From Planctomycetota bacterium (GTDB lineage: Bacteria > Planctomycetota > Phycisphaerae > WQYP01), in the NCBI GenBank assembly GCA_021852275.1, contig JAJZNX010000025.1:621-64620 (forward strand): a stretch of DNA of 64,000 nucleotides, given 5' to 3'. The notes beneath the pieces are model-generated. The model saw only the letters and a program-made list of their open reading frames with translations, was not told where the DNA came from and ran no database searches. The position numbers and the translations under genes were made by a program. Below, piece after piece: positions 853 to 18,818 of this stretch; position 1 is the stretch's first letter, and each line of letters starts with the position of its first letter.

Positions 853-2022
853 TCAGGCGCTATCGCGGCGGATCAATTCGACCGGGACGGTGCGCTGACG
901 GGCCATGAGCCTGTCCTGCCTCCGCATGGCGAGTTGTTCCAGCAGGAGTTGAGCAGCGTTGATTCCGATGGCCTTGCCATTCTGGCGGATGGTTGTAAGT
1001 GCCGGTGTGAATACACTGGCCATAGCGGTATCGTCGAATCCGATGACGGCGATGTCGTCCGGAATGCGCCGGCCGGAGAGCAGAATGGATTTCATGCCGA
1101 TCATGGCTTCGAAATCATTGCCGAAGAAAATACCATCCGGCGGATACCGCTGGGCCAGCAAGCTACGTATGATGGACTGAAAGCTTTTACGTGCAGAAAA
1201 ACCGCTGGAGTCATCGCAGGAACAGATGCGGCGATAATCCATGGGCACGCCGGCTTCGTTGACAGCCTGCAGAAAACCATCCCTCCTGTCCCGGACGGCG
1301 GATATTCTGAAACTGTGCGTTACAAGGGCGGGCCGCCGACAGCCGCGCTGCAAAAGCAGACGACCGGCCATGCGTCCGCCTTCCCGATTATCGGAGGCAA
1401 CATGCCAGCATGGAATATCGGCAAAGTAGCGGTCTACCAGAACAATAGGCTCACCATCGATTACAGCGCGGACAAGATCTCGCACCACGTGCGGACCGAG
1501 GTTGGAAAAGGCGATAATGCCGTTGCCTTCGCGAATGGTCTGTTCAAGCTGTTCATACTCTTCCTGCTCATCCAGGTGGGTATCGACAACGGTCACGTGC
1601 AACCGCTGGGCGGCGAGAACCTGACGCAGGCCGAGAATAATATCGGCGGCGAATGGATCGCCGAGTCGGGGAATGACCACCGAAACCTTGCGGATGGCAG
1701 CGAGCTGGTGCGTGGGCTGGTCAAGCCCGGAGAGCGTATTCGCTGGGGTTTGGCCGTTATCCGCGGCTCCGACAACGATTTGCGGGGCGTGCCGCGATAC
1801 AAAAGTGCCACGGCCACGGTACGTATGCACAATTCCCTCGGCCGCCATTTTCTGAATAACATTCCAGACGGTGAGAGTAGCGGCACCGGTGCGCGTGGCG
1901 AGTTGGCGGACACTAGGCAGACGGTCTCCGGGGCGAAAATCGGCGCGAGCGATGTGCCCGAGCAGGTAACTGCGGATCTGCTCCTGAACAGATATAGGTT
2001 GGTTGCGTATTACTTTAGCCAT
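853..2022 (-). CDS. transcriptional regulator: GntR-type winged-helix N-terminus fused to a LacI/PBP1-type sugar-binding domain (AraR-like architecture)
   Basis: 389 aa. The N-terminus (RPGDRLPSVRQLATRTGAATLTVWNVIQKMAAEGIVHTYRGRGTFV) is a GntR-type HTH. The rest (VSVVIPRLGDPFAADIILG ... IAVIGFDD) is a LacI/GalR-type ligand domain. It lies divergent from the 2365-9888 locus. Confidence 0.85.
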   Translation of the reverse strand: MAKVIRNQPISVQEQIRSYLLGHIARADFRPGDRLPSVRQLATRTGAATLTVWNVIQKMAAEGIVHTYRGRGTFVSRHAPQIVVGAADNGQTPANTLSGLDQPTHQLAAIRKVSVVIPRLGDPFAADIILGLRQVLAAQRLHVTVVDTHLDEQEEYEQLEQTIREGNGIIAFSNLGPHVVRDLVRAVIDGEPIVLVDRYFADIPCWHVASDNREGGRMAGRLLLQRGCRRPALVTHSFRISAVRDRRDGFLQAVNEAGVPMDYRRICSCDDSSGFSARKSFQSIIRSLLAQRYPPDGIFFGNDFEAMIGMKSILLSGRRIPDDIAVIGFDDTAMASVFTPALTTIRQNGKAIGINAAQLLLEQLAMRRQDRLMARQRTVPVELIRRDSA

Positions 2023-2063
2023 ATTCTAAGCTCCCGGCGGCTGGGCTAAACTTGCTACTGGAT

Positions 2064-2080
2064 CAACGCGGAGTGCGTTG
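2064..2080. promoter_or_regulatory. inverted repeat CAACGC-N5-GCGTTG, candidate operator in the divergent intergenic region
   Basis: Perfect 6-bp arms at 2064-2069 and 2075-2080, about 40 nt upstream of the regulator start codon. Confidence 0.25.
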
Positions 2081-2190
2081 GCAGTATATCTCGCGTCATC
2101 ATACACACTAGCGGTCAAGCCAAGTCTGGCATGATGTTAAGCCTATGAAACAGTATAACACACTTTTTCACATTTTCCAGCAGAATTGCC

Positions 2191-2219
2191 TTGACAATGA
2201 ATGTTTCAGCCGTCATAGT
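2191..2219 (+). promoter_or_regulatory. candidate sigma70-type promoter for the DUF1559 / surface-protein locus
   Basis: TTGACA (2191-2196), a 17-nt spacer, then CATAGT (2214-2219). Sequence match only. Confidence 0.3.
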
Positions 2220-2256
2220 ACAGATAAATATAAGGGCTGCGGCGAGCACCCTGATG

Positions 2257-2272
2257 CCTTGGAACACCAAGG
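2257..2272. promoter_or_regulatory. perfect palindrome CCTTGG-AACA-CCAAGG (operator or 5'-UTR hairpin)
   Basis: 6-bp arms with a 4-nt spacer, located between the candidate promoter and the ATG at 2365. Confidence 0.3.
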
Positions 2273-2364
2273 CGACATTTGCTTAAGCGTGTTGGGTGGT
2301 CTCGCTCCGGCTGGATTTGTGGGGTTGTCGATTACCGAATTGGCGACCCCAGGAGGTTTCACCC

Positions 2365-3312
2365 ATGCGGACGAAACGAACTCGAGCCTTTACTCTACTA
2401 GAATTACTGGTGGTGATTTCCATCATCGCTTTGTTGATTGCCCTGCTTTTACCAGCACTGTCGCAGGCGCGTATTCTGGCGCAGAGGATTCAGTGCGCAT
2501 CGAATTTGCGCCAATTGGCTCTGGGCTTGCAGGAATATGCGAACCAATACAATGATGTATACCCGATGACCAATGATAACGCCAAACCGTTCGGCGGCTT
2601 CCATGGCAGCAGTGGTACTGCAACCAACCAGTGGAATAACTACGGACCAGAGTGGGGGCTATCGGAACTGTTTTACAGTTCATGGGGAATAAGCGGCCCG
2701 TACATGGTGAATATGCGGCCGGGCGTGATGAAGCCGGATCCAGGCGGCATAGCATTTCTGTATTCGACACAGCCAGGCGGAATTAATGCGACCAACCAGA
2801 TTCGAGCAAGTTACTATGACACTACGGCCGGCACCTTGGGTTATGGCCTGCTGCGGCAATGGAATTTTTACGGCGGCTATTGCTATTGGGTGGATCGTGG
2901 CAGCGGCCCCATACCAGCCGGTGGAACTGTTCCGCAGGGATACAGTTCAGCCTACGACATGCGCGTGCTGGAACAGGGATATACGCCGAACTATTCGAGT
3001 GCCAACTTCGGGTTGGATTTTCCGAATCCTGATACGATCCACATGCCGGCAGAAAATCCGCAGTCTAATCCTGGAGCCATCTTGCTTTCAGACATTGCGT
3101 TAGTACAGCCAACGTCGATTGGAGAGGCTCCTCAGGCCGGGCTGGTGTGGACCGGTACGAATGGAGAGCCGGCGTCAAGCCATGTTGATAGCAATAATTT
3201 AGAACTACCGGACGGGGTGCACGAAGTCTATAACGACGGATCTGTGCACTGGGTACCGGTGGGGCTAATCAGAATCCGTTATGTGATGCAGGGGCTGAAT
3301 TTTGCGTGGTGA
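2365..3312 (+). CDS. prepilin-type N-terminal cleavage/methylation domain protein, DUF1559 family
   Basis: ATG at 2365 is preceded by AGGAGG (2351-2356). The N-terminus [30 protein letters not shown] is a type IV pilin-like signal, and the following pattern is typical of the planctomycete DUF1559 expansion. The 23 upstream codons of the tracked ORF have no RBS. Confidence 0.85.
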
Positions 3313-3479
3313 GCGGCCGGAAGAGAAAAGTCGCACAAATGTTAAATGTGAGGCCGGCATCAGGTCGGACAGACGGCAGTGTAAGAGGGTAACAATGCTG
3401 CAGGATGTTTGCAATGAGAAAAAAAGCAACGTACTGTGTGGTACGTTATTTTGAGGGTTCTTTTTAAGGAGTAGCACCT

Positions 3480-5606
3480 ATGTTCATCTCCACAAACAAA
3501 ACTCACGGTAAGGCAGCCATAATGGCGGCGGCGGCGACACTGGTTGCCATGGGATTGGGGGCGCGGGTCGCCAAGGCCAATTACATCTGGGATCCCAGCA
3601 GCGTCAGTGGAGGCAGTGACGGCAACGGCACATGGTATGGAGCAGGCCTTGGCGCCAATAACTGGTATAATGGCAGCACGGAAACAACCTGGGCCAACAG
3701 CAACACCGCAGTATTTGGCCGGGGGAACACATCGGCATTTACCGTAACCTTGGGGAGCAGCACCAATAGTGCATCGGGATTGATTCTGGGGTTTGACGGT
3801 AACTACACGCTGGCGGCCAACGGTACCAATAATGCACTGGCGGTGACGGGGCAAGTGATTCTCAAGAGAAATACCAGTAGCGGTAACGCCGGCACACTTA
3901 CGCTACAAGGCGTAACGGTGAATAACAGCACCTACAACGGTGGCAGCGACAGTTTGGACAGTGGCGTGTATGACAACGGTACGTTAAATATCGGCAATAG
4001 CACCGCGAGTGCCGTGTTGGAAGTGCAGAATATTGTGGCCGGCGGCGGGTCAGGCATTACTAATTCGACCGCCGGTTCGCTGGGCACGATCAACATCAAC
4101 CAGGGAAGCACGCTGGCAATCAGCGGCAACTCCCGGCTGCAAATTGATTACGGCGAAGCACCGGCCAACGGCACCGGCGGGGCGGTGAACGTGAATGGCG
4201 GAACGGTGACTCTGGGGAGCACCGGGATTATATGGCTTAGCGACGTGAGCGTTAGCGGGGGCGGCACCACATCTGTCGGGACCATGAACGTCGGACAGAC
4301 GGGCTCGGGCAGTTACGTGAGTGCCTCTGAGGCGGAAACTGCTAACAACGGTTTCACCCAGACCGGTGTGCTCAACGTGTACAGCGGCACGGTTAAGCTC
4401 ACCGGCAGCACGTCGATTAATACTGCGGCTGGGTCGACAACAAATGTGAACGTGTCGGGCGGCACGCTTACCGCCAGCGGTACGGTCAATTCGGGCGGCA
4501 GCGGCGCCTACACCGACCTGACCGTCAGCGGCACAGGCATTGTAACTGCCAATGAGATCACCAGCAGCAGTGGTGCAACCACGGGTGTTAATGTCAGCGG
4601 CGGCAGCTTATCGACCAGCGTGATCAGCAGCAGCGGAACTACAAACGTAACCGTGAGTGGTACGGGCACCTTGACGGCCACGAGCACGGGTGGTTCGATT
4701 ACCAGCGGCAGCGGCGGCAAGACAACAATCAATCTTAATGGTGGTACGCTGTCAGTTTATAACATCAGCGCAAATGGTGGCAGCGGCGGAAGTACCACGC
4801 TGACCTTCAACGGCGGTACGCTGCAGGAGAACGGCGGTTCTTCGTTTTCCAAGGGGATTATCAGCAATGCAAATGGTGCCAATCCGACATTGTACGTTGA
4901 TAGCGGCGGAGCGACCATCGACAACAACTCAGCGACTGCATTTGTCTACGTGCCACTACTGACGGGGACGACTTCCGGCGGCGGCCTGACGATTGCCAAC
5001 AGTGGCAGCGGCGGCGAGGTTGGTCTGGAAGGTGGAGGCAACACCTATACGGGTGCGACGGTGGTTGAAGGCAATGCGACCTTGAGTTTGATATACAGCA
5101 GCACGCTGGGCAGCGCATCTACAATTGCCAACAGCAGCCTACTGCAGATTGATGCCGGTGGAACGCTTAACATTGTACCCGACTCTGCGGGACAGCAGAT
5201 CAGCGTTGCAGGTGGCCTGACCCTGGAAGGCGGCACTATTGATGTTCTGTTAGCCACACCGGTGGCTACAACGGAGCTGCAGAATATTCAGGCGACGGTT
5301 GCCGCCACCATCAGCGGAAACAATATCATCAATGTGTCCGCGTCGGGTGCGAACGCGCTTGTACCGGGCACGTATACACTGATATCTGACACCGCCGGCG
5401 GGCTGATTCCAGGTGATTTTATCCTGGCCAGCAATACCGTTACTCTGAACAGTATTACATATGACCTTAGCCTTACCGGGAGCGCCACAACGGAGATGTT
5501 GACCGTGAGCAACGTGCCTGAACCGGCAACGCTGGGAATACTGGCCTTGGGTGGGCTTGGGCTATTGTTGGCAAAACGTCGACTGATGGCAGTGCAGGGC
5601 CGGTGA
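3480..5606 (+). CDS. autotransporter-associated beta-strand repeat protein with a PEP-CTERM sorting signal
   Basis: 708 aa. Signal peptide, then G/T/S/N-rich degenerate beta-strand repeats (e.g. GGGNTYTGATVVEGNATLSL). The C-terminus VPEPATLGILALGGLGLLLAKRR is a PEP-CTERM signal. Confidence 0.85.
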   Translation: MFISTNKTHGKAAIMAAAATLVAMGLGARVAKANYIWDPSSVSGGSDGNGTWYGAGLGANNWYNGSTETTWANSNTAVFGRGNTSAFTVTLGSSTNSASGLILGFDGNYTLAANGTNNALAVTGQVILKRNTSSGNAGTLTLQGVTVNNSTYNGGSDSLDSGVYDNGTLNIGNSTASAVLEVQNIVAGGGSGITNSTAGSLGTININQGSTLAISGNSRLQIDYGEAPANGTGGAVNVNGGTVTLGSTGIIWLSDVSVSGGGTTSVGTMNVGQTGSGSYVSASEAETANNGFTQTGVLNVYSGTVKLTGSTSINTAAGSTTNVNVSGGTLTASGTVNSGGSGAYTDLTVSGTGIVTANEITSSSGATTGVNVSGGSLSTSVISSSGTTNVTVSGTGTLTATSTGGSITSGSGGKTTINLNGGTLSVYNISANGGSGGSTTLTFNGGTLQENGGSSFSKGIISNANGANPTLYVDSGGATIDNNSATAFVYVPLLTGTTSGGGLTIANSGSGGEVGLEGGGNTYTGATVVEGNATLSLIYSSTLGSASTIANSSLLQIDAGGTLNIVPDSAGQQISVAGGLTLEGGTIDVLLATPVATTELQNIQATVAATISGNNIINVSASGANALVPGTYTLISDTAGGLIPGDFILASNTVTLNSITYDLSLTGSATTEMLTVSNVPEPATLGILALGGLGLLLAKRRLMAVQGR

Positions 5607-5739
5607 ACTTGTAACATAGGCTTTGGTTTGGGGATTCCTCTATCGCACAGATGTACATTCAGGTGAGCGGTGAGTGTGTGAAACCGCCTTTGGCGGCAGG
5701 CATAGAGCGCGGTTGTATTGTTTAAGGAGATTGGCGGAA

Positions 5740-7086
5740 ATGCCAGAACGAGGTTTTGATCGCCGGCGATTTCTGAGTACGGCGGCACTTGCCAGCCTGG
5801 CGGCAGCGACTGGGGCCGGCGCAGTAGCTGAGTCGGGCACAGCCAGCGGTAAGGGGATGGCGGCGATGGCGCTTGCCGGCGCACTGAATGTGTGCAATTT
5901 CGGTGCTCGTGGAACTGGGAAAAGCGACGATACCATGGCCATCCAGAAGGCGCTGGATGCTGCTGGCCGCAGGAATGGCCAGGTGGTAACGCTGCCGCCG
6001 GGTAATTACCTGCTGAGAGGTTCACTGCACGTGCCGGAGAATGTGACATTGCAGGGATGCTTCCGGGCACCGCCTAGGCCGGCCGAGGTGGGTCAAAACG
6101 CGAACGTTCATGGTGGTAGCATGCTGGTGGCGGTGGCGGGCAAGGGCCATGCAGACGGGGAGCCACTGATTTCACTCTACGCGAACTCCACACTTTACGG
6201 ACTTGGTATCTTTTATCCTGAGCAGACAGCTCCAAATATGCCGGTGGAATATCCGTGGACGGTGCGGCAAGTCAGCGACAGCGCAGCCATAGTGAATGTG
6301 CTGATAATTAATCCGTGGCAAGCGGTGGATTGTGGCACAGTAACGGGCGGGCGGCACTATATACACGGACTGTATGCTCAGCCGCTGAAAACAGGTTTGT
6401 ATATTGATCGCTGTCTGGACGTGGGGCGAGTGGAAAATGTGCACTTCTGGCCATTCTGGAGCAGCAATCCGGAAACCCTTAAATTCACGTCCACAACGGC
6501 TACGGCATTTCAGATCGGCCGCACAGACTGGCAGTACATGTTCAACTGTTTTGCCATCTGCTGCATGACCGGTTATCACTTCATGCGTACCTCCGACGGT
6601 GCCCCGAACGTGCTGCTGACGCAGTGCGGGTGCGATGAAGGGGCGGCGGGCACAAAGAGCACATCGGTACTGGTGGATGCGTTGGAACAGCATGCGGGGG
6701 TCAGTTTTGTCAACGGGCAGTTCATGGGAGCGCCATCAGTACGTGTCAACAGAGGATGTAATGGCCCGGTGAAATTCACGAACTGCGGTTTCTGGGGTGG
6801 TGCACAGACGAACACAATCGCGCTGCTGGCGGGGACGGGGCAAACCACATTCATGGGCTGTCATTTCGAGTGGTGGGGGCAGCAGAACCATAATACCCCG
6901 GCGATTGAACTGCATTCGGGTTCGATTACGGTGAATGGGTGCGAATTCCTGGACAAAGGTAAATTACAAGTAGCCATTCTGGGTGGCGATGCGGCGATTA
7001 TCACGGCCAACCGCCTGCATGGATCAGCACGCATCGTCAACCATATCGGGAAGCGAGCCAAGATGGCGCTGAATGCGGTGGGGTAA
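5740..7086 (+). CDS. Tat-exported right-handed beta-helix protein (pectate-lyase-superfamily / glycoside-hydrolase-like)
   Basis: ATG at 5740 with AAGGAG at 5724-5729. Twin-arginine signal DRRRFLSTAALASLAAATGAGA. LNVCNFGARGTGKSDDTMAIQKALDAA...VVTLPPGNYLL matches the N-terminal signature of Pectate_lyase_3-type beta-helix enzymes. Confidence 0.7.
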   Translation: MPERGFDRRRFLSTAALASLAAATGAGAVAESGTASGKGMAAMALAGALNVCNFGARGTGKSDDTMAIQKALDAAGRRNGQVVTLPPGNYLLRGSLHVPENVTLQGCFRAPPRPAEVGQNANVHGGSMLVAVAGKGHADGEPLISLYANSTLYGLGIFYPEQTAPNMPVEYPWTVRQVSDSAAIVNVLIINPWQAVDCGTVTGGRHYIHGLYAQPLKTGLYIDRCLDVGRVENVHFWPFWSSNPETLKFTSTTATAFQIGRTDWQYMFNCFAICCMTGYHFMRTSDGAPNVLLTQCGCDEGAAGTKSTSVLVDALEQHAGVSFVNGQFMGAPSVRVNRGCNGPVKFTNCGFWGGAQTNTIALLAGTGQTTFMGCHFEWWGQQNHNTPAIELHSGSITVNGCEFLDKGKLQVAILGGDAAIITANRLHGSARIVNHIGKRAKMALNAVG

Positions 7087-7203
7087 TGTCGGGAAGAGAC
7101 AGGGCGGTGACGCCGCGGAAAGGAAGGCGCAAACCCGGTGGGAGTGTGGCGCGAATTTTCCCGGCAATCCGGGAATAGTCCGGGCGAGAGTGAAGGAGTG
7201 ACA

Positions 7204-9888
7204 ATGAATAAAAATTTAACGTATCTGCTTTTGCTGACGGCCGGAGCGGCATGGTGCACGGGGAGGCCACCGGTTGCACAAGGCCGGGCAATGGGTATAG
7301 ACGTCTCGAATTTTCAGGGGAGTATCAACTGGACGCAGGTGGCCGCGGACAGCGTGGGCGGCAGTTCCATCAGCTTTGCGTGGGCGAAATGTGATGAAGG
7401 CAGCGCAAGTAACGTAGACTACATTGATCCGACTTTTCAAACTAATGTGGCTGGTGCTACAACAGCAGGCATTATGATCGGGGCGTATCATTTAGCACAT
7501 CCGGAGCTTGACACGCCGGCATCCGAGGCGGATTTCTTCGTGGCCAACGCCCGCGCGCAGATTGGTGCCGGCTACCTGCGGCCGGTGCTGGATCTGGAGG
7601 AGGGTGGTGGAGTGCCGGTGGTGGGGGCATCAAGTCTGTCCGGGTGGGTCAATGATTTTTTAAGCGATGTGCAGGCTCTCAGCGGGGTTACGCCGATTAT
7701 CTATACGGACAGCAATTACGCCCAGAGTTACCTTGATTCGAGCGTAGCGAAGAACAATCTCTGGATCGCCAATTATAATTATCCAACGCAATCACAGACG
7801 GCCAGCCCGCCGGTTGGCGTTTTCAATGTCTGGAATTTCTGGCAATACACGGACAGTCTTAGCCTATCTGGCATCAGCGGCAACGTGGACGGCGATGTGG
7901 CTAACGGCCCGGTAAGCTACGTACAGAGCTTTGTGACCCCGATTGACACGCTGCAGTGGAATTCGGGTGAAAGCGGCAGTGGTGGTACTGATGGCAACGG
8001 CACATGGGGCGGGACTGGCAAGCAGTGGTACGACACGACAACTGTGGCCGGTCCTGTGCTGTGGACCACCGGTGACGGGGCGGCGCTCGGCAGTGGAAGT
8101 TCGGGGCAATACACCATTACGCTGACCAATGATGTTATCTGCGGCCAGAATGAAACCGGTACGTCAAATGCGGGGCCGTTTGTCGGCCTGACGGTTGCCT
8201 CCGGCGCCAACTATAACCTGAACGGTTCTGGACAGCTTTACTCGCTGACTGACAATGGCCGATTTCAGGTTAACGGCCGGCTTACCTTGGGAAACATTAC
8301 CCTGGACAATAGTTCGTATGACCATAACGTTTATTCAAGCATATCGGGCGTCTACGGAGGCCAGTTGAACATCGGTGCAGGGGCAAATGTCAATGCGGCG
8401 GAGATTGATGCGGGCGGGGGCAGCGGCGCAACCGGGACGATTAACGTCAATAGCGGAGGCAGTTTACTGGTAGGTTCGCGATTGCAGATCAACTTCGGCA
8501 AGGGGCCGGCCAGCGGTACCGGCGGCGTAGTAAATGTTGAAGGTGGTACGATCAGCTTGGGAAGCAGTGGAATCATCTGGCTTAGCGATGTGAACACGGG
8601 CGGGGGCAGCAATGGATCTGTGGGTACCCTCAACGTGGGTACAGGTGGCACCGGCGGCATTGTTACCGCCCCGGAAATGGAAACGGCATATAACAACACT
8701 GCGCAGACCGGGGTGTTGAATATTTACAGCGGTGCCGTTACACTCACCGGGGGTATTGCTGTTACCGCCAATGGCTCGGCAGTTACGGATGTCAATGTTT
8801 ACGGCGGTACATTTAACGCCGCTTCCGGCACGATTACCTCGGCTGTCGGGGCAGGTACAAACCTGAACGTAACGGGTGGAATCGTTACAGCGGCGACAAT
8901 CGATGCCGCGGGAACCACCAGTATGACCATCAGCGGCAGCGGCATCGTGAAAGCCACGAGTACTGGTGTCGGCGGGTCAATTACCAGTGGCAGCGGCGGT
9001 ACAACGACGATCAATCTTGACGGCGGGGTGCTATTTGTTTACACCATCAGCGGTGCCGGTGACGGGAACACCACACTTAATTTTAACGGCGGAATGCTGC
9101 AGGAAAATGGCGGATCTTCATTCGATCAGAGTATGATCAGCAGCGCCGGTGGATCGAAGCCGAACGTTTATATCGATAGCGGAGGAGGAATCATTGATAA
9201 CAATTCTGCAACTGTAATTGACTATGCACCATTTCTGGCGGGAACAACTTCCGGCGGCGGCCTGACGATTGCCAACAGCGGCAGCGGCGGAGCGGTCGAA
9301 CTGGCAGGTGGAGCCAACACGTACACGGGAGCGACGGAAATTAAATCTGGTGCCACCCTGGCGCTGGCGTACCATAACGGCGTGTCGGCTACGATTGTAG
9401 ACAGCAGGTTGCTGCAGATAGACACGGGAGGTACGTTGGACCTTACGGAGGAGGCGACGGGACAGCAGATCAGCGTTGGCGGATTGAGACTGGCGGGAGG
9501 CACCCTGAGATTCCTGCTGGACGGCAGCCAACTGCAGAGCATTGCCGCGAGCAGTGCCGCAACGGTCAGCGGCACAAACTGGATTGATATTTTTACCAAA
9601 GGATCTTCTCTCACAGTCGGCACGTACAACTTAATCAGTGATGGGCAGGGTGGATTATCAGGTGGAGGAAGCTTGAATTTTGGTAATGGTCTGGATCAGG
9701 AAACGGTTGTTGTTGGTTCTAACGGATACCTATTAACCTTGATAAATTCCGCCACACTGGAGACTTTGACCGTCGGCACGCAAGGGACCATTCCTGAACC
9801 ACCGGCGTTGGGGCTGGTGGCCGAGGCCGTGCTGCTGCTAGGGTGGAGCAGACGCACATACCGCGGTTTTAAACGCCAATGCGTATAA
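7204..9888 (+). CDS. GH25 muramidase (lysozyme) domain fused to beta-strand-repeat region and PEP-CTERM anchor
   Basis: ATG at 7204 follows GAAGGAG, and a signal peptide is present (LTYLLLLTAGAAWC). The GH25 signature runs GIDVSNFQGSINW...GAYHLAHP...LRPVLDLEE...IIYTDSNY...LWIANYN...WNFWQYTD...GNVDGDVANG. About 650 aa are paralogous to 3480-5606. The C-terminus is IPEPPALGLVAEAVLLLGWSRR. Confidence 0.85.
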   Translation: MNKNLTYLLLLTAGAAWCTGRPPVAQGRAMGIDVSNFQGSINWTQVAADSVGGSSISFAWAKCDEGSASNVDYIDPTFQTNVAGATTAGIMIGAYHLAHPELDTPASEADFFVANARAQIGAGYLRPVLDLEEGGGVPVVGASSLSGWVNDFLSDVQALSGVTPIIYTDSNYAQSYLDSSVAKNNLWIANYNYPTQSQTASPPVGVFNVWNFWQYTDSLSLSGISGNVDGDVANGPVSYVQSFVTPIDTLQWNSGESGSGGTDGNGTWGGTGKQWYDTTTVAGPVLWTTGDGAALGSGSSGQYTITLTNDVICGQNETGTSNAGPFVGLTVASGANYNLNGSGQLYSLTDNGRFQVNGRLTLGNITLDNSSYDHNVYSSISGVYGGQLNIGAGANVNAAEIDAGGGSGATGTINVNSGGSLLVGSRLQINFGKGPASGTGGVVNVEGGTISLGSSGIIWLSDVNTGGGSNGSVGTLNVGTGGTGGIVTAPEMETAYNNTAQTGVLNIYSGAVTLTGGIAVTANGSAVTDVNVYGGTFNAASGTITSAVGAGTNLNVTGGIVTAATIDAAGTTSMTISGSGIVKATSTGVGGSITSGSGGTTTINLDGGVLFVYTISGAGDGNTTLNFNGGMLQENGGSSFDQSMISSAGGSKPNVYIDSGGGIIDNNSATVIDYAPFLAGTTSGGGLTIANSGSGGAVELAGGANTYTGATEIKSGATLALAYHNGVSATIVDSRLLQIDTGGTLDLTEEATGQQISVGGLRLAGGTLRFLLDGSQLQSIAASSAATVSGTNWIDIFTKGSSLTVGTYNLISDGQGGLSGGGSLNFGNGLDQETVVVGSNGYLLTLINSATLETLTVGTQGTIPEPPALGLVAEAVLLLGWSRRTYRGFKRQCV

Positions 9889-10084: not shown

Positions 10085-10414
10085 ATGCAGCGCAATGAGG
10101 CGGACGGGATTATTATTTCCTGCGACTTTTGTGGGACGGATTGGGATGGCCAGGCCGCAATGGTCGAGGGGCATCATGGTTCGGTCATCTGTCTGGATTG
10201 CGTAAAAAAAGCGTTGGAAGGGGCCGCAGTGGGCGAGGATAAATACGAATGTACGTTGTGCCTGCGTCATAATATACCAGGGTCGCTGCCGCGGTGGACT
10301 AATCAGCCTAAGTTCAGTGCGGTGGTTTGCCAGGAATGCTTACATCAAGCGGCCAAGGCATTAAGCAAGGCACCCCATGCTCAATGGAAATGGCAGGGTG
10401 GAGCCAAAAAATAA
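10085..10414 (+). CDS. small protein with two ClpX-type C4 zinc-finger-like modules
   Basis: ATG at 10085 with GGAG 5 nt upstream. CDFCGTDWDGQAAMVEGHHGSVICLDCV resembles the ClpX N-terminal zinc-binding pattern CxxC...CxxC. A second module reads CTLC...VVCQEC. Confidence 0.5.
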   Translation: MQRNEADGIIISCDFCGTDWDGQAAMVEGHHGSVICLDCVKKALEGAAVGEDKYECTLCLRHNIPGSLPRWTNQPKFSAVVCQECLHQAAKALSKAPHAQWKWQGGAKK

Positions 10415-10476: not shown

Positions 10477-11430
10477 ATGAGTCGGCTTTTTCCAGACATT
10501 ACCTCTACGATGGGCAATACACCCCTGGTACGAATCAATCGTTTGATTCCAGCCGGACAGGCGACAGTATACGCCAAATGCGAATTTTTTAATCCGTTAG
10601 GCAGCGTGAAAGACCGCATTGGCGTGGCAATGATTGCGGCAGCGGAAAAGGCGGGGCAAATTAACAAAGAAACGCACATCTTGGAGGCTACCAGCGGCAA
10701 CACTGGAATAGCCTTGGCATTTGTGTGTGCGGCAAAAGGCTACAAACTTACGCTGTTCATGCCGGAAAGCATGTCGCTGGAGCGGCGTAAGCTGCTGCGA
10801 ATTTTAGGTGCGAACCTGGTATTGACACCAGCTACGGAAGGTATGCCGGGGGCGATCCGTCGTTGTTCTGAAGCGGCGGAACATGACAAGAACTCTCTGA
10901 TTGCGAGGCAGTTTGAAAATCCTGCCAATGTAGAGATTCACCAGAAAACCACTGCAGAAGAAATCTGGCGTGATACTGACGGCAAGGTGGATGTTTTAAT
11001 ATCAGCAGTAGGTACTGGAGGAACAATTTCAGGGGTGGCTTCGGTGATTAAGAAGCGAAATCCAAGATTTCGGGCGATTGCCGTGGAACCAACGAATTCG
11101 CCGGTGATAACGCAGACGAAAGCGGGCCAACCTATCAAGCCTGGCCCGCATAAGATTCAGGGTGCCGGTGCAGGATTTATTCCCAAGAACTTACATATGG
11201 ATATTGTGGATGAAGTGATACAATGCACGAATGAAGATGCATTTACCTGGGCGCGGCGTTTAGCGGCGGAAGAGGGAATTTTGGCGGGCATCAGTTCCGG
11301 AGCCAATATGTGGGCAGCGGCCCAGGTGGCAGCCAGGCCGGAAATGAAGGGCAAAGTGATTGTGACAATTATGTGTTCTACCGGAGAGCGGTATTTGAGC
11401 ACAGCCATGTTTGAAGGCTTGGATGTATAA
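10477..11430 (+). CDS. cysK: cysteine synthase A (O-acetylserine sulfhydrylase)
   Basis: 317 aa. [11 protein letters not shown], the PLP-lysine region [22 protein letters not shown] and GTGGTISG are canonical CysK motifs. Confidence 0.95.
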
Positions 11431-12033
11431 GGTTACCGTTGGAGGGTGGGTTAATTTTTGCGATAGGCGGGCAATTATACTCAATTTAACATAACGTATA
11501 TACTGATTCACATGTGTTAGGTAGTCTGAGTAACGAATGATTGGTATCTGTGGATGAATAATAGTACGTATTACTTTGATATGACCAGGTGGAGTCAGAG
11601 TAACAGAATGATGAGGCTGTTTTAGTACCTTTAGAATCCGAATTGCATAAGTCGGTAATCTGCGTCTGAAAGATATAACGCTAAGAGCACCATCAGATCC
11701 CCATGGCGATAAGGGACAATTAATCTGGTTAGGTTTTAACATAGTTGATGAGATGATAACTCCGTGGCGCAACCAGAAAATTCGGACTGGGAATTTACAG
11801 TATGTCATTGAAAACTTACGCCGGCCGAGTTTCCAATTAAAGAGAGAAGAGTATTGGTGAACGCTTGATATGTAACAGAGCTTTGCGGTTTTTAATACAA
11901 AAATCTTGGCTGGAAAATGGATGAACTTGATTGTTTGTGAGTTTTGCAGTCGAGCACGTATAATGACGACACGTGCTAAACAACTGGTTGAAGCCAGAGC
12001 TATGACTGAGAAAATTAAGAGGTACTTTTTCAT
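11260..12033 (-). CDS. hypothetical signal-peptide protein whose ORF runs across attL into host DNA
   Basis: A 257-codon ORF in AT-rich DNA, where the other frames are stop-dense. Begins [18 protein letters not shown]. Residues YIRYVKL are encoded by the att core. The last roughly 80 codons lie outside the prophage and antisense to the cysK 3' end. Confidence 0.35.
11481..11501. repeat. attL: left copy of the 21-bp direct repeat TCAATTTAACATAACGTATAT (hybrid dif-like site 11484-11511)
   Basis: Identical to 21660-21680. It contains ATTTAACATAA (reverse complement of the E. coli XerD arm TTATGTTAAAT) plus the 6-bp centre CGTATA. The distal arm TACTGATTCAC is non-canonical. Confidence 0.8.
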
Positions 12034-12481
12034 ATAAAGCCCTTTAATGAGAAAATTCTTATCAGGAATATGAGATCCTGTCAAGCAATGGCTGATAAAA
12101 AATCGAAAAAATGACGTTCAATCAAATATTTAACAGTACGTTAGGTATTTGTTTGTATCAGCCGACCTGATTACACCTCAGTAAAAGAGAAATGAGAAAG
12201 ATCCGCTCCACGGCCGCTTGGCCGCTTGCAACTCTCTTCCCTCCAGGCTGGCCGACTGCCGTCGGCATTAGTTTCGCAGGTTAAATATGTAATGATGCTT
12301 CGTGTAGATCAGGTGATGCCATTGCTGGCCTGCATGCATAATTCGTATCAGGTTACGGATGGACGAACGGTCCTGTTGGTTCTTTACGTGCTGAATCTGG
12401 CATTGAAATGACCAAAGAAAACAGTAAAAAAGCAGAAAGGCTATGCTGATGATTCTTGGCCAAGACTTCCACATATGTTAC

Positions 12482-12871
12482 CTAGTAAATAATGTGCTTT
12501 TGTTTTAATATCTCAGGTGGTATTTCGTCATTCTTACCGGCGATGGCACGCCAGAAGTTCTTAACGTGCTTAGTCTCTTGGTAAACGAAATGACGATCAG
12601 ATTCTGGACCTGTTTCAGGACATAATTCTCGGAACCAGATGATATCTAAGAGCTCGCAATATTTTCGCCTGGTAGCGTCAGAATGGATTATGTCCAAGAC
12701 TTGATACCCGAAGAGTTGGCCGAGAAATAAAGCTCCAATTGCTGATTCTAATTGTCGGGCATCTGTTTCGCTTCGGTGACTATCACGTAATGCGTCTTCC
12801 ACGGTTTGGAGAATTTTATGAAGGCGCTTTGCTTGTTCTCGGGTATGTGCAAATGGTTTAGTTTTTTTCAT
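12482..12871 (-). CDS. hypothetical protein (prophage accessory gene)
   Basis: 129 aa. The start overlaps the stop of the upstream ORF (ATGA at 12868-12871). No motif recognised. Confidence 0.6.
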   Translation of the reverse strand: MKKTKPFAHTREQAKRLHKILQTVEDALRDSHRSETDARQLESAIGALFLGQLFGYQVLDIIHSDATRRKYCELLDIIWFRELCPETGPESDRHFVYQETKHVKNFWRAIAGKNDEIPPEILKQKHIIY

Positions 12872-13131
12872 GATTTCTCCTCTAAAAAGTGTCCATTCAT
12901 CCGCTTAATCATCAGCAGGACAGCCGCAAACGCCTCCTGTTGGCCTTGCAACCTCCGATACGACGGGTCGTCCTCTCTGATGTGAATTGACTCAAGCTGG
13001 GCCATCCTGGCTTGCGCCTGAGCCTCCTTGCCCACCAGCCAGTTAATGAGTGGTTGACTGTCCATGACGGGATCCTTTCTGTAATGTTTTTGTTCGGCCT
13101 TCCGCTTCAGCGAAAAGCTTCTTGGACTCAT
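12868..13131 (-). CDS. hypothetical small protein (prophage accessory gene); the start is more likely the ATG at 13065
   Basis: 87-aa tracked ORF. An internal ATG at 13065 gives a 65-aa product, MDSQPLINWLVGKEAQAQARMAQLES..., predicted helical. Translationally coupled to 12482-12871. Confidence 0.45.
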   Translation of the reverse strand: MSPRSFSLKRKAEQKHYRKDPVMDSQPLINWLVGKEAQAQARMAQLESIHIREDDPSYRRLQGQQEAFAAVLLMIKRMNGHFLEEKS

Positions 13132-14329
13132 TCAGAACTGGCTTTAAAATGACTGAATGTCTCAAGCCACCCGGTAACAAGTGAGGTTGTTGGTAATGTT
13201 CTTTGCAGGCAACACTTTCCAAAGAGATCCACAAAGAAAATTCGTCGCCGGCATCGTCATCGGCTAAGGTTGGATTGTTTGAAGATATTCCAAATTCCTT
13301 GCCCAAGCTTCGGTCAGTAGCACGGACTAACTGTACGGTGTCTCCAACATATCCTTGTGCCAGAAAATTGATTGTCTGTTGTACTTCTGGTGCTAACGGG
13401 TTTGAATCACCACCAATAAAACTCGAGATTGTAAGGTTTCCAGCAATAACCCAGTGGTTGCCGACTCTTGCTGCATTGAGGTCAACTGTAAGCCCGGATG
13501 TGCGCGTAGAGTAGCCTGATGTCAGCAGGTTATTGGTATTGCTGGTTGCAGCAGTTGTAGTGTATTCAGGAGCGACAATTGTTGTGGTATCAGTGTACTT
13601 TTCCTCTTGCCGGCTAAGCATAGTTGCTCCAAATGTAGTGAGAACAGCTTGAGCTTGGTGCAGCACATTACCCAAGACATTAACTCCAACACCAGATACT
13701 GTGGTCATTGAGGTTAGCGGAGTTGAGATCCCGTTGACAGATATATCAACATTGTTTGCCCGGCTTTCGTTGAGGAGCCAGACTTTGACACGTACTTGAG
13801 GAACACGACGAAGTAAGAATCGAAGTAGCTTTTCTGCCTTCGAGTACAGGCTGATGGGACCAGTAACAACCAATCTGTCGCCAATAGCCGAGAAGTTGAC
13901 TCGTGGAATTGCAAGTTGTTCCGGAACAATGCCCGTTAAGCCAGGATTGATCGGGTTAGGGACAACGACAGTAAACTGCCGGCGATGAGACCAATGCAAG
14001 CGAATAACATTACCTCGGAGATGAGGAACCGTATCTGTTTCACGAGCTAAGACTCTTGACAATCTTCGGGCTGTATATCGTCCGGCAAGCCAAACAGGAT
14101 CATCCTGCAATCGTGGATTAAAAAGTAAATGCAGGTTTTCGGTTGCCAATGCGGAACGCAGTACCCGTAATGTCATAATGCCTGAGAGGCGAAAGCCATG
14201 ACCATATACGTGAAACTTACGGACTTCACGTATCGTAAAGTGCTGGTGGACTGGCGTGGATGGCAAATCACCCATAGCACAGCCGGTGAGTGATATCACT
14301 ATTAAAAACAAAATCGTTAACCGCTTCAT
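13043..14329 (-). CDS. secretin-family outer-membrane channel, lipoprotein (phage pIV-like)
   Basis: 428 aa. Lipobox LTGC at residues 14-17. The C-terminal half (TVDLNAARVGNHWVIAGNLTISSFIGG...PEVQQTINFLAQGYVGDTVQLV) follows the secretin C-domain pattern. The size matches f1 pIV (about 426 aa). ATGA overlap with the Zot-like gene. Confidence 0.75.
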   Translation of the reverse strand: MKRLTILFLIVISLTGCAMGDLPSTPVHQHFTIREVRKFHVYGHGFRLSGIMTLRVLRSALATENLHLLFNPRLQDDPVWLAGRYTARRLSRVLARETDTVPHLRGNVIRLHWSHRRQFTVVVPNPINPGLTGIVPEQLAIPRVNFSAIGDRLVVTGPISLYSKAEKLLRFLLRRVPQVRVKVWLLNESRANNVDISVNGISTPLTSMTTVSGVGVNVLGNVLHQAQAVLTTFGATMLSRQEEKYTDTTTIVAPEYTTTAATSNTNNLLTSGYSTRTSGLTVDLNAARVGNHWVIAGNLTISSFIGGDSNPLAPEVQQTINFLAQGYVGDTVQLVRATDRSLGKEFGISSNNPTLADDDAGDEFSLWISLESVACKEHYQQPHLLPGGLRHSVILKPVLNESKKLFAEAEGRTKTLQKGSRHGQSTTH

Positions 14330-15552
14330 CTAATAGCTTTCTCATGGATAGTCATAGCACCCGCCTGATGACGTAATGTATCTGGAGCTTTTGGCTTTGG
14401 AGGCCACCACCAATATCGTTGAGTGACTTTGCCGGCTGGTCCCATGATTTGAATACCACCATAATTGACATCGAGTATTTTCCATCCATCAAATTTAAGT
14501 CCGATGGGAAGTAGGCCAACGTGAGATCCGTTACCCAGTATGACAGAATCGCCGATGATCCCATATAGACGGAGCTTTGATGACTTTTTGTAGACTTTTC
14601 TGACGATAATCTGTTTATGATTCTTTTTGGCAGGTAAATGCTGGTGATCGTATATGGCATCGGCCACCAAGAAAAGTGCCAAGACGGCCAAAACGTATCT
14701 TTTCCACTTTCGACGAGGCTTTTCTGCATGGTGGTTGGCGTTAACTTGCACAATTGTTTGTTGCGGCTGAACTTGTCCTGCATAAGCCGGATTAGCAGGA
14801 GGTATCGGTATGTGATAAGTCTGGGAAGACTGTCCAGGTTCAGGTTGATCACTTAGCACAATTGGCATGACTTTATTTCCTGTTGGTCGACTAACAACTG
14901 ATCCAGGTCGATTAGCCTTATTGGCAGCAACTTTGGCGCGAGTGTCGTACAGTTTGTAATAAGGGAGCATTTCCGCCGCTGTAACAACACGCGGAAGACC
15001 GATAGCCTGTTGTCGCTGACCATTCTCCACATTGTAAGTACGCTGGAAAAAAAAAATCGGACGGCCGCCGACTCTTGGTACAAATTCTGGGAATCCAACT
15101 CGTCTACAAGCTGTAAATCGTGTAGCCCGTTGGCGAATGAAAATATCCAGGTTGGCAAAATTCTGGCACAAGAGCCAGAGGCTATCGCCGTCTTTCCTGA
15201 ATTGTGATATGTAGGCTTGGAATGTGTTGCGATGGCCTGAGGAATCTTTCTCCGCACTGTTGATCTTCCAATCGCGAGCGGACCAGATCAGGTGAGCTTC
15301 GTCTACGTAGACGTCATATCCAGGAGGTATCAACTCCCAGAAGTGTCTGGTTTCTCCGGCATCATCGTCCAATAGAACAACTTCAGCACCCGACCAGATT
15401 CTTTTGGCTTGCTGCACAAAAGCAGGCAGGATTGCAATATTGGTTGCAATTTTATGGTGTCGGTAAACAGAATCGAGCATCAATTGTACGGCGAGCAGGC
15501 TTTTGCCACGACCTGGTGCACCGTCAATTATTGTCAGTGTACCATCCATCAA
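14326..15552 (-). CDS. Zot / pI-like P-loop morphogenesis ATPase
   Basis: Walker A IIDGAPGRGKS, Walker B-like VYVDEAHLIW, and an internal TM segment (RYVLAVLALFLVADAIY) as in inovirus pI/Zot. The likely true start is the ATG at 15549 (TGATG overlap with the upstream ORF). Confidence 0.85.
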   Translation of the reverse strand: MMDGTLTIIDGAPGRGKSLLAVQLMLDSVYRHHKIATNIAILPAFVQQAKRIWSGAEVVLLDDDAGETRHFWELIPPGYDVYVDEAHLIWSARDWKINSAEKDSSGHRNTFQAYISQFRKDGDSLWLLCQNFANLDIFIRQRATRFTACRRVGFPEFVPRVGGRPIFFFQRTYNVENGQRQQAIGLPRVVTAAEMLPYYKLYDTRAKVAANKANRPGSVVSRPTGNKVMPIVLSDQPEPGQSSQTYHIPIPPANPAYAGQVQPQQTIVQVNANHHAEKPRRKWKRYVLAVLALFLVADAIYDHQHLPAKKNHKQIIVRKVYKKSSKLRLYGIIGDSVILGNGSHVGLLPIGLKFDGWKILDVNYGGIQIMGPAGKVTQRYWWWPPKPKAPDTLRHQAGAMTIHEKAIR

Positions 15553-15950
15553 CTATTACCCCAGAACTGATGATAAGCGATCAGGGCAATTCGGATTAAC
15601 AGACAAACAGGTAGCAGGAGAAGGAGAAAGGCCAAACCGTCAACAAATACGGCCATATCAATAAATGGGTTAATTACGTCAGATAAAATGCTATAAATGT
15701 TCTCTATTACTGGTGCTGCATTGGTTATTGCAGTGGTGATATAGCTGACGACATATGTTAACCCCATGGCAGATATGCTAGCTTGAAAGAAGCTTGAAAT
15801 TTCAGGCAGGTAACCTTCAAGGCATGAGTACATGTAGGTCCAGATAACTTGAGCAGCAGCTTCTAAGCCCTGTATGACAAACTTTGTCGCAAAGTGTGCG
15901 AAATCAACCAGTGGCTGCATTACGTATGAGATAGTACCAGAAAGACTCAT
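15549..15950 (-). CDS. hydrophobic minor-coat-like membrane protein (pVI-like by size and position)
   Basis: 133 aa with several hydrophobic segments. Located between the adsorption-protein gene and the Zot-like gene, as gene VI is in Ff phages. Confidence 0.55.
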   Translation of the reverse strand: MSLSGTISYVMQPLVDFAHFATKFVIQGLEAAAQVIWTYMYSCLEGYLPEISSFFQASISAMGLTYVVSYITTAITNAAPVIENIYSILSDVINPFIDMAVFVDGLAFLLLLLPVCLLIRIALIAYHQFWGNS

Positions 15951-15952
15951 TT

Positions 15953-18157
15953 TTAGTCCTCGTTAGATGGTGCTCCGAGTTTGAAAGGTAATTCACCACC
16001 CCATAGTGACCAGTGAAAAATCTTAACGGTTGCGACCAGAATCCATAAAATATAAAAGCCGGTGCAAATTGGTTGTAACCACTCGCAGCCTGTAGAGAAG
16101 GTTATTAGACCGGCAACGAATGCGTTACCAATTGTTGAAACTTCACCATCCGGATCTGATGATGAAGTCGAAGTGAAACCAGGTCCTGTCCAGGAAACAC
16201 CGTTTGAAGGTTGCTGGATGCCGCCGTAAAGCGGCATATTCGAGAGGTTGGTTTGACCATCTGTATTGGATGCAGACGCAACTGCACCGATGCCCGTTGA
16301 TTCTGTAGATGCGTTAGCAGAGTTAAGAATGGTGTTTGTTACAAACTGCAATGGTTGTGTGAGTCTTGTAGCCTTTAATACGTCATAAGCACCTGTGCCT
16401 GAAGTGCTGTTAAATGTGTAAGAACCGGATGAAGATGTAGCAGAAGGCATGTCTTGGGTTAGTTGTGTGACCATATAGCCAGCATCAGAAGATGCTGATA
16501 ATGCAGAGCTTTGGGTGTTTTGCTGAATTGTAGTTTGGGAAAGTTGACCACTGGTCAGTCCAGAGAACGTGGCCAGGTAAGGTTTGATGTTTCCGTTTGC
16601 ATCTGGGGCGTTATAGAACGCCTCGGCGAACATGTTTGTATAGACACCTTGAGGTGTGTCAGGTCCCTGATACCACTCGGCTGGAGTTTCTCCAGGTGCC
16701 TGTTGGAAGGAGGAAGTAGTAATGAAGTTATATGGTGCAGTTAAGTAACCTGATTGCGTTTCAGTGATACCATATGCGTATGAGAGTAGTTGTGGTAATG
16801 ACGCACTAACTTGACTCCCGAATGGCATGCTATTCAAACTTCCATTACCGTATTGGTTGTAAAATTGCCAGTCTAGTGCACCAAATGATGTGTAATAAGG
16901 TTGTGGTATAGATCCACCTAAACTCGAATTATAAAATTGACCTATATCGTAATTTGGTTGCCAGGTGAGAGCAGCGGCGATGTCGTCTAAATAGCTGTTT
17001 CCCTCCGGATCAAGAAAAACACTGTGGCCGATGTCGGGGTTGCCTTGTGGCCCGGTTAGGTTTGGATTGTCGGTTAGGAATACGCTGCTGCCCAGTGGGA
17101 CGGTTTCGGTGCCGGTGATTGCTTGTGCTTGGGTTTGGAATGCTGAATCCCAAATACCCTGTTGGGGGTAGGTCTGGTTGTGGTTTGGCATGTACCATGC
17201 TTCCCAGTTGTTTCGTCCCGAGAAGACAGATACGCTTTCTTCTGGTCCGTATTCGTCTTTGAATACGGAGCTTAGGCCTGCTTTTGGGCTGTTGGATGTG
17301 ATGCCTGTGTCGTAGTTGAGTTGTGCAAAGTAGGACAGTCCGCCGTTTATTCCGAGGTTGGTGTTCGCGGTGGGTTGGACGAAGGCGCTTGCTCCGTATT
17401 TGTCTGTGAAGACGGGCCAAGAGTTGTTGTATTCGGTGGCTTCTTGCCATGCCGTCGGGGGCTGAAGTGCGTTTGCTAGGTTTTGCGCCGCGGCGTCCGG
17501 GTTGTAGGCGAAGTCGGATTGTTCGGTCAAGGCGTTGTAAAACAGGCTGTTGCCGTTGCCGTCCTTGAATACGCTGGTGGCGGTGCCTTTCTGGTTTCCG
17601 GAGGAGTTTGTGTAGGTTGGGGTGAAAGAGAAGTCGCTGCCGCCGGTGTTGGGGTCTATGAAGACGCTTTGGTAGGTTGATGGTTCGTTTAGGGTGCCGG
17701 TGGCGTAGTAGGGCATTCCGTTGCCCATCATCCACCATGGGTTTTGGCTGTATTGTTGCTGGAATACGCTCCATTGGTTGTTTTGGTCGTAGAAAGCGTG
17801 GTAATTGATTGATGCGGTGCTGGCGAGTACGCCAGTTTGGTTGGCGGTGTTGCCGCGTATGGCGGGTAGTTCGCCGACGGTGCTTGTGCCGACGGTTGCG
17901 TCGTTTGCTATGCCGATTTGGGCGGCGCTTTGGTTGATGGCGTTTACCACGGTGCTGAAGGCTGGGTATGAGCCTGATCCGTTGTTGTTGGTGTAGGCCG
18001 CGCTTGCCGTTGCGCAAGGGGCGGCGGCTGTGGCTAGGATTATGGCTGCGGCCGCCGTGTGGTGCCAGTTGGTGCGGGTGGTCCGCTGGGGCCAGGCGGT
18101 CGCTAGGAGGCTGTGTAGTCGGTGCGCGTCTTGTCGTCGTGTTTTTTTGGCGTTCAT
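15953..18157 (-). CDS. large N/S/T/Q/Y/G-rich secreted protein with a C-terminal membrane anchor (pIII-like adsorption / receptor-binding protein)
   Basis: The ATG at 18157 gives MNAKK...AAAAIILATAAAPCATASA, a signal peptide. The C-terminal hydrophobic anchor is GFYILWILVATVKIF. The largest gene of the element sits immediately upstream of the pVI-like and pI-like genes. Confidence 0.65.
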   Translation of the reverse strand: MNAKKTRRQDAHRLHSLLATAWPQRTTRTNWHHTAAAAIILATAAAPCATASAAYTNNNGSGSYPAFSTVVNAINQSAAQIGIANDATVGTSTVGELPAIRGNTANQTGVLASTASINYHAFYDQNNQWSVFQQQYSQNPWWMMGNGMPYYATGTLNEPSTYQSVFIDPNTGGSDFSFTPTYTNSSGNQKGTATSVFKDGNGNSLFYNALTEQSDFAYNPDAAAQNLANALQPPTAWQEATEYNNSWPVFTDKYGASAFVQPTANTNLGINGGLSYFAQLNYDTGITSNSPKAGLSSVFKDEYGPEESVSVFSGRNNWEAWYMPNHNQTYPQQGIWDSAFQTQAQAITGTETVPLGSSVFLTDNPNLTGPQGNPDIGHSVFLDPEGNSYLDDIAAALTWQPNYDIGQFYNSSLGGSIPQPYYTSFGALDWQFYNQYGNGSLNSMPFGSQVSASLPQLLSYAYGITETQSGYLTAPYNFITTSSFQQAPGETPAEWYQGPDTPQGVYTNMFAEAFYNAPDANGNIKPYLATFSGLTSGQLSQTTIQQNTQSSALSASSDAGYMVTQLTQDMPSATSSSGSYTFNSTSGTGAYDVLKATRLTQPLQFVTNTILNSANASTESTGIGAVASASNTDGQTNLSNMPLYGGIQQPSNGVSWTGPGFTSTSSSDPDGEVSTIGNAFVAGLITFSTGCEWLQPICTGFYILWILVATVKIFHWSLWGGELPFKLGAPSNED

Positions 18158-18363
18158 TTTGCAAGTTCCTTGTAGTGGTTGACTATTTCCGGGGTTCGGG
18201 CGCATTTGCCGCAGAGTCCACGGCCGCGGCTGAAGTCTACCCAGAGCCAGGATGTACCGTCTGGGCCTCTCCTGCGGCCAGTAAGATGGCATCCCACGCA
18301 TCGGCACTTTGTCCAAGACTGTCTGGACATGATCATTAGACGACGATCAATTTTCATTTTCAT
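18154..18363 (-). CDS. small Cys-rich zinc-ribbon-like protein
   Basis: ATG at 18363 with GGAAAGGA just upstream. 69 aa containing CRCVGC...CGKC. Its stop overlaps the pIII-like start (ATGA at 18154-18157). Confidence 0.45.
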   Translation of the reverse strand: MKMKIDRRLMIMSRQSWTKCRCVGCHLTGRRRGPDGTSWLWVDFSRGRGLCGKCARTPEIVNHYKELAK

Positions 18364-18804: not shown

Positions 18805-18818
18805 AAAAGAATCCTTTC

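Follow-up and report, generated by a model that had tools for sequence, protein, structure and literature searches.

Lysozymes of glycoside hydrolase family 25 (GH25) and the modular lysins built on them are well known. Cellosyl, the N-acetylmuramidase M1 of Streptomyces coelicolor (Chalaropsis-type GH25, PDB 1JFX), is a soluble, secreted enzyme of a single domain. In pneumococcal LytC, phage Cpl-1 and Psm of Clostridium phage phiSM101, a GH25 head is coupled to choline-binding or SH3 wall-binding repeats that target or anchor the enzyme, which acts on or against Gram-positive walls. Right-handed beta-helices are the passenger fold of type Va autotransporters such as Ag43, pertactin, Hap and EspP, and passengers of the SPATE type (serine protease autotransporters of Enterobacteriaceae) carry an N-terminal enzyme head on such a helix. 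We analyzed a stretch of 64,000 nucleotides (hereafter, the window; contig JAJZNX010000025.1 of assembly GCA_021852275.1) from an uncultured mine-drainage planctomycete of the class Phycisphaerae, whose genome is available as a 3.58-Mb metagenome-assembled genome (MAG) of 82% completeness. The gene of interest, P0004, encodes a protein of 894 aa in which a Sec signal peptide, a GH25 head, a beta-helix stalk and a PEP...RR tail follow each other in this order. Our leading explanation, held with about even confidence, is that P0004 is a sugar-inducible, exported muramidase mounted on an adhesin-like rod, processed by an exosortase and digesting foreign peptidoglycan as part of a glycan-foraging cassette.

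The GH25 head (residues 31–245; 7294–7938, + strand) is an intact muramidase as judged from its sequence and fold, and its activity is predicted. Residues 32–224 score 125.8 bits (cut-off 27) with PF01183, over the full model (positions 1–180). The head aligns to cellosyl with E = 1.4e-24, the two catalytic domains being 30% identical in a structural alignment. In the sequence alignment, D33 (7300–7302), D130 (7591–7593), E132 (7597–7599) and D229 (7888–7890) stand opposite Asp9, Asp98, Glu100 and Asp198 of cellosyl. The alignment to known GH25 enzymes proposed in a preliminary description of this DNA thus finds all four acidic positions kept, and the six GH25 motifs quoted there are all present in the translation. 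The four residues, together with W213-Q214-Y215, are invariant among 19 GH25-stalk proteins. When the full-length protein is modelled with AlphaFold2 (AF2), confidence is restricted to the head (predicted local distance difference test, pLDDT, mostly 79–90 at residues 31–130 and lower beyond). A Foldseek search with the head model returned 1JFX as the best match (target-normalised template modelling score 0.81, root-mean-square deviation 3.1); the top 16 matches are all GH25 structures, and the modular Gram-positive lysins are matched by 2WW5, 1OBA and 4KRT. Both cellosyl and P0004 are secreted, but P0004 adds a beta-helix of 610 aa and a C-terminal membrane or sorting tail. Unlike LytC, Cpl-1 and Psm, it combines the head with a beta-helix and an exosortase-type tail, and does so in a diderm cell.

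The stalk (residues 250–862; 7951–9789, + strand) is predicted to be a right-handed beta-helix. It is poorly modelled when the full-length protein is folded with the 19-sequence alignment (mean pLDDT 52), whereas refolding of residues 250–894 with the stalk's own family alignment gave an all-beta rod (pLDDT 82.5, predicted template modelling score 0.83). Foldseek assigns the rod to this fold with probability 1.0, its matches comprising Ag43 (7KOH, E = 2e-5), pertactin (1DAB), Hap, SepA and EspP; by sequence, no meaningful match to the stalk was found in the PDB. GH25 was the sole family found when the whole protein was compared with Pfam at E ≤ 0.01, PF12951 and PF03797 being absent from the matches, and the C-terminus of the model is an unstructured tail that contains a single hydrophobic span. 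Since neither the Pfam matches nor the model include a beta-barrel translocator, P0004 is passenger-like but, unlike type Va proteins, is no autotransporter, and its export must go by another route.

The preliminary description had stated that the stalk shares its repeat scaffold with a neighboring protein. Indeed, residues 259–866 are 47% identical (E = 5e-117) to P0002 (3480–5606, + strand), a beta-helix protein of 708 aa that has no GH25 head and carries a genuine PEP-CTERM tail (PF07589, 24.2 bits; TIGR02595, 20.1 bits). The stalk family is rare: a search of 1.84 billion clusters retrieves 51 representatives at E ≤ 1e-3, and the best of these are 550–700 aa long, which is the size of P0002 as judged by length alone. 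DNA identity between the two genes peaks at only 73% over 300 nt; hence, the duplication is old, and the same value rules out recent gene conversion. In a domain tree, the head of P0004 is sister to a Phycisphaerae clade (Shimodaira–Hasegawa-like approximate likelihood ratio support 94). P0004 appears to be a fusion specific to its lineage, between a GH25 head from Phycisphaerae and a copy of the adjacent gene.

The open reading frame (ORF) of P0004 spans 7138–9888 (+ strand), with a likely start at ATG 7204, 6 bases 3' of a GAAGGAG Shine–Dalgarno sequence. The Sec-type signal expected from the preliminary description is present at the N-terminus: MNKNLTYLLLLTAGAAWCTGRPPVAQGRA (residues 1 to ~29; 7204–7290, + strand), recognized by sequence and hydropathy, stands directly before GIDVS and has an h-region of Kyte–Doolittle value 1.9. 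Homologues have an A-x-A site immediately upstream of GIDVS, and their GH25 domain starts right behind the signal, as it does in P0004. A lipoprotein reading was rejected, the sequence 'AAWC' being no lipobox. The gene occurs without any difference or indel in Logan contigs of four metagenome samples from mine drainage (one study), the sole cross-mapping being with the paralogue, near 9250–9480; the reading frame is therefore no assembly artefact. Recent horizontal transfer was also ruled out: the GC content of 0.54–0.57 across the gene is within the 0.52–0.59 of its neighbors, and the head groups with Phycisphaerae.

At its C-terminus the protein carries a degenerate PEP-CTERM-like tail, IPEPPALGLVAEAVLLLGWSRRTYRGFKRQCV, which together with the stop codon occupies 9790–9888 (+ strand). 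The PEP, the RR and a spacer of 16 residues between them, equal to the genome median, are kept. The PEP...RR tail is where the preliminary description placed it, but its scores fall short of the curated cut-offs and rank last in the genome. The MAG contains ~70 PEP-CTERM ORFs and one exosortase (G000:C98; PF09721, 187.8 bits; TIGR02602, 154.5 bits versus a cut-off of 105.55), whose gene adjoins a Wza-like polysaccharide-export gene. The proposal of surface sorting accordingly gains the enzyme it calls for, but is weakened by the quality of the tail, and display itself is a prediction.

P0004 belongs to a cluster (853–9888) in which a sugar-type regulator, a DUF1559 gene, a PEP-CTERM protein and a glycosidase stand side by side. 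The gene order is a GH2 gene with an unknown gene, a divergent regulator, the DUF1559 gene, P0002, P0003, P0004, a small ClpX-zinc-finger ORF and cysK. The regulator (853–2022, – strand, 389 aa) joins a GntR DNA-binding domain to a LacI-type sugar-binding domain (PF00392 with PF00532/PF13407/PF13377) and is AraR-like. The first gene of the cassette (2365–3312, + strand) encodes a DUF1559, or prepilin-type, pseudopilin-like protein (PF07963 N_methyl, 26.2 bits; PF07596, 26.2 bits). P0003 (5740–7086, + strand) has a Tat signal (DRRRFL) and a right-handed beta-helix of pectate-lyase/rhamnogalacturonase-like fold (PF12708, 50.4 bits); with weak PDB sequence matches to mannuronan epimerases, an alpha-1,3-glucanase and galacturonosidases, it is a putative glycan depolymerase. 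The regulator, the pseudopilin and the Tat-exported protein are all as described before. No convincing terminator was found in the gap between P0003 and P0004.

Similar gene pairs recur in the genome. A DUF1559 gene lies within 1.5 kb of 38 of the 71 PEP-CTERM ORFs, compared with 5.3 ± 2.2 for random ORF sets, and the resulting two-gene cassettes are mostly adjacent and on the same strand (examples are at 2365–5606 of the window and on contigs C3, C140, C163 and C189). This excess hints that exosortase cargo and pseudopilins are functionally connected, and the locus in the window is thus one case of a recurrent cassette. Parts of the cassette are also found elsewhere. A Phycisphaerales MAG (L029) has a DUF1559 gene, a GH2 gene, a P0002-like PEP-CTERM protein, a second DUF1559 gene and a GH25 gene that is truncated where the contig stops. 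In L070 (7791–13570), a GH25 protein of 316 aa passes directly from its domain into a threshold-passing PEP-CTERM tail, and a homologue of P0003 (E = 2e-116) is located ~3.5 kb away, directly behind a GH20-like DUF4838 protein. The genome also encodes MurQ (329 bits, above the cut-off) and AnmK (345 bits), so that N-acetylmuramic acid (MurNAc) can be catabolised; NagA is matched only below threshold, at a contig end.

P0004 is the only GH25 gene in its genome, and it is an accessory one. The protein is matched in 5 of 40 related genomes, and its own genus yields a single match, which is weak and restricted to the C-terminal end. In a sister strain (GCA_027435995.1; one assembly, present as two records, L002 and L003) the operon is conserved and, outside the GH25 gene, under purifying selection, with neighboring proteins 86–92% identical at a ratio of nonsynonymous to synonymous substitution rates (dN/dS) of 0.08–0.15: the regulator is 91% identical with dN/dS 0.08, and P0002 is 87% identical (BLASTP) to its ortholog P0005 with dN/dS 0.11. 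The GH25 ortholog of that strain (L002:11100–11700) is a pseudogene. It has a 46-bp deletion that takes out DVSNFQGSINW..., a 1-bp deletion and the substitutions D33A, G93V, G123D, P127A and D130N; the remaining fragment is 72% identical to P0004, with dN/dS 0.30. Being the sole GH25 of the genome, patchily present and pseudogenised in the sister strain, P0004 is no core or housekeeping autolysin, in agreement with the preliminary description.

We further compared P0004 with other proteins of similar build. A homologue search yielded five Planctomycetota proteins with a signal peptide, GH25, PF12951 beta-strand repeats and PEP-CTERM (P0006, P0007, P0010, P0027 and P0056) and one (P0014) in which a stalk of another kind joins GH25 to PEP-CTERM. 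These six and the L070 protein, all uncharacterised, share with P0004 the order of signal peptide, N-terminal GH25 and PEP-CTERM, and the six, like P0004, have a beta-rich stalk ahead of the tail. The architecture is therefore not unique; exosortase-tailed GH25 proteins are already in the databases. However, the GH25 part alone of these proteins aligns to P0004, and their stalks have no detectable sequence similarity to that of P0004, which is a copy of the adjacent gene and belongs to a rare family. The tails of the Planctomycetota relatives score above the PEP-CTERM threshold and that of P0004 below it. What sets P0004 apart is its rare, locally duplicated beta-helix and its degenerate tail. 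A literature search found no paper combining GH25 and PEP-CTERM, and searches of the Planctomycetota and necromass literature gave nothing specific.

More broadly, the GH25 clade (80 genome loci) heads secreted multidomain proteins whose C-terminal tails follow lineage: PEP-CTERM in Planctomycetota, domains of the type IX secretion system (T9SS; PF18962) in Bacteroidota, and, in Thermoplasmata and deep-sea hydrothermal vent euryarchaeota 2 (DHVE2) archaea, a PGF/PEF-like motif with a hydrophobic span and a basic cluster, or no tail. Three DHVE2/Thermoplasmata MAGs (L013, L015 and L028) have GH25 tails of archaeosortase type, parallel to PEP-CTERM, e.g. ...STPGFEMNLVLLALGACMLVFLLGRRR. GH25 proteins of Verrucomicrobiota have in common a C-terminal module ending in ...W..L.......G...F.......QQFYRARVGP (loci L025, L032, L035, L042, L050, L062, L068, L071, L080 and L083), a possible sorting or anchoring domain peculiar to that lineage. 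Some relatives have two GH25 domains per protein (L019:5763 onward; P0008).

The archaeal members deserve separate mention. Thermoplasmata and DHVE2 archaea have no murein of their own, and their GH25 domains are 45–51% identical to that of P0004. For Aciduliprofundum boonei, an archaeon of the DHVE2 group, killing of bacteria by its GH25 muramidase has been demonstrated (Metcalf et al. 2014, PMC4241558; restated in PMC12352652). In these organisms, as we propose for P0004, GH25 would be used against walls other than the cell's own, and for A. boonei the activity is backed by experiment. The archaeal proteins differ from P0004 in their accessory domains and in their archaeosortase-like PGF/PEF-type tails or lack of a tail. 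The head of P0004 is placed with the Phycisphaerae clade and not with archaea; the A. boonei sequence itself stood outside the comparison.

Taken together, we suggest the following scheme. After Sec export, P0004 would be kept in the inner membrane by its C-terminal PEP...TM...RR tail, where TM is the hydrophobic span, and the single exosortase of the genome probably processes it, which would leave it either exposed on the cell envelope or released from there. A rigid beta-helix rod, which would have arisen by duplication of the neighboring adhesin-like PEP-CTERM gene and whose ~610 residues suggest a length of ~13 nm, would hold the catalytic head at its N-terminal, distal end. The head is expected to cleave MurNAc-beta-1,4-GlcNAc bonds (GlcNAc, N-acetylglucosamine) of foreign peptidoglycan, in wall debris and in exposed walls of neighboring cells. 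P0004 would thereby be one of the glycan-degrading enzymes of a sugar-regulated cassette of regulator, DUF1559 pseudopilin, PEP-CTERM protein and glycosidases, and the freed amino sugars would feed the MurNAc/GlcNAc catabolism of the cell. Most likely, then, the protein is enzymatically active, is processed by the exosortase, has its place outside the outer membrane and serves nutrition rather than killing. The sugar-regulated glycan cassette, the presence of MurQ and AnmK and the lack of access to Gram-negative walls favor nutrient scavenging over killing. Of the earlier interpretation, the exported GH25 head on a long beta-helix stalk paralogous to the neighbor holds, but the contact killing was overstated, and the architecture is not unique.

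Several observations weigh against this scheme. Sorting by the exosortase is plausible from the sequence, yet it is the weakest link. PF07589 gives no match on the whole protein and 13.5 bits on the isolated tail, versus a cut-off of 20.7, and TIGR02595 gives no match. With a hidden Markov model built from 64 PEP-CTERM tails of the MAG, P0004 scores 6.6 bits, compared with 15–42 bits for ~70 ORFs, and is the lowest tail in the genome. Its hydrophobic span holds a Glu and has a hydropathy of 1.79, the 5th percentile in the genome, and an extension of 11 residues follows the RR. Because the tail fails the curated models, has Glu in the span and bears this extension, sorting of P0004 may be impaired. 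To our knowledge, the route by which PEP-CTERM proteins cross the outer membrane is not established. In Akkermansia, intracellular fractions were found to contain more of the PEP-CTERM proteins than outer-membrane fractions did (PMC4960237). The cassette is also rarely kept together: genes specific to it, beyond a lone DUF1559 or regulator homologue, occur in 2 of 80 related loci (L029 and L070). MurQ and AnmK serve the recycling of a cell's own wall equally well. No reads map to the locus in three small metatranscriptomes of the same study, which is uninformative. Finally, since the sister strain holds a pseudogene, the function of P0004 could be on its way to loss in this lineage.

The alternative preferred in the preliminary description is that P0004 is a contact-dependent antibacterial weapon, a stalk-displayed lysozyme that lyses competitors or prey on touch, with nutrition secondary. 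A head carried on the far tip of an adhesin-like rod would suit such a role, as would the accessory and patchy nature of the gene, which is common for competition genes. The archaeal members of the clade, whose hosts have no murein, cannot be autolysins, and the A. boonei enzyme kills bacteria (PMC4241558). However, no immunity gene, toxin partner or module for breaching an outer membrane is visible, a muramidase by itself cannot get to a Gram-negative wall, the gene sits in a sugar-regulated glycosidase cassette, and the sorting tail is weak. The cassette setting together with MurQ/AnmK favors the scavenging of wall material over a contact-dependent bacteriolytic device. We consider the weapon unlikely, although it ranks first among the alternatives to an exosortase-processed forager.

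P0004 could instead be an autolysin tethered to the inner membrane in the periplasm, its tail a plain anchor and its rod setting the head at the cell's own peptidoglycan for remodelling or for trans-envelope assembly. A degenerate tail may well escape cleavage by the exosortase, the estimated length of the rod is comparable in magnitude to the width of a periplasm, and Phycisphaerae have peptidoglycan as well as the MurQ and AnmK recycling genes. But the gene is missing from most relatives and decayed in the sister strain while its neighbors are conserved, it is located away from division or cell-wall genes, and relatives in the clade bear secretion tags such as those of T9SS or occur in archaea devoid of murein. 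Such an autolysin seems to us quite unlikely.

Close behind it comes the notion of a gene in decay, an intact-looking but relaxed duplicate with a degenerate sorting tail and little or no benefit to the cell. The weakest tail of the genome, the clearly pseudogenised sister copy, the dN/dS of the pair raised to 0.30 and the lack of transcripts in the three metatranscriptomes all fit this notion. Yet the frame of 894 codons is open and identical in four samples, all family-invariant GH25 positions are kept, the stalk still folds confidently in AF2, and the branch leading to the pseudogene can alone explain the raised dN/dS. We give decay a small chance. That the head acts on a non-peptidoglycan polymer of beta-1,4-linked amino sugars, for instance an exopolysaccharide of the cell itself or of others, in concert with the cassette's GH2 and pectate-lyase-fold enzymes, is very improbable: GH2 and beta-helix glycanases are indeed co-located under a sugar-sensing regulator, but in its catalytic tetrad and WQY motif the head matches cellosyl, and the characterised GH25 enzymes known to us are muramidases without exception.

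The flanks of the cassette hold three further features. A small stand-alone ORF with a weak match to the ClpX-type zinc finger (10085–10414) is located between P0004 and cysK. Directly downstream of cysK lies an inovirus-like prophage of low GC content (11260–21690; GC 0.43–0.48) that encodes a Zot-type ATPase (14326–15552, – strand). On the other side, a conserved protein of 354–416 aa without a family match is encoded between the GH2 gene and the regulator, both in the window (1–711) and in the sister strain (L004:2444–3508).

Taken alone, P0004 is another modular GH25 lysozyme with similar architectures lying unannotated in the databases, and its value is mainly that of a test case. Among the pools of microbial necromass, peptidoglycan is a major one, and its extracellular degraders and their means are poorly known. 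If P0004 is sorted by the exosortase, its lysozyme on an adhesin-like rod would offer the PEP-CTERM/exosortase pathway, which is still poorly characterised, a definite cargo open to assay, and would give a defined enzymatic member to the DUF1559-pseudopilin cassettes, which are many in Planctomycetota and have no known function. A wider view is possible, though we regard it as doubtful: surface-tethered GH25 proteins may form a widespread, unrecognised 'wall-harvesting' class that has been mounted repeatedly on the sorting system of each lineage, with the Phycisphaerae version built into a pseudopilin-associated machine resembling a polysaccharide utilization locus. If so, the sorting systems concerned would be exosortase/PEP-CTERM in Planctomycetota, T9SS in Bacteroidota and archaeosortase tails in archaea, and DUF1559 proteins, PEP-CTERM rods and glycosidases would together capture and digest the walls of other microbes, which would amount to extracellular bacterivory or necromass feeding.

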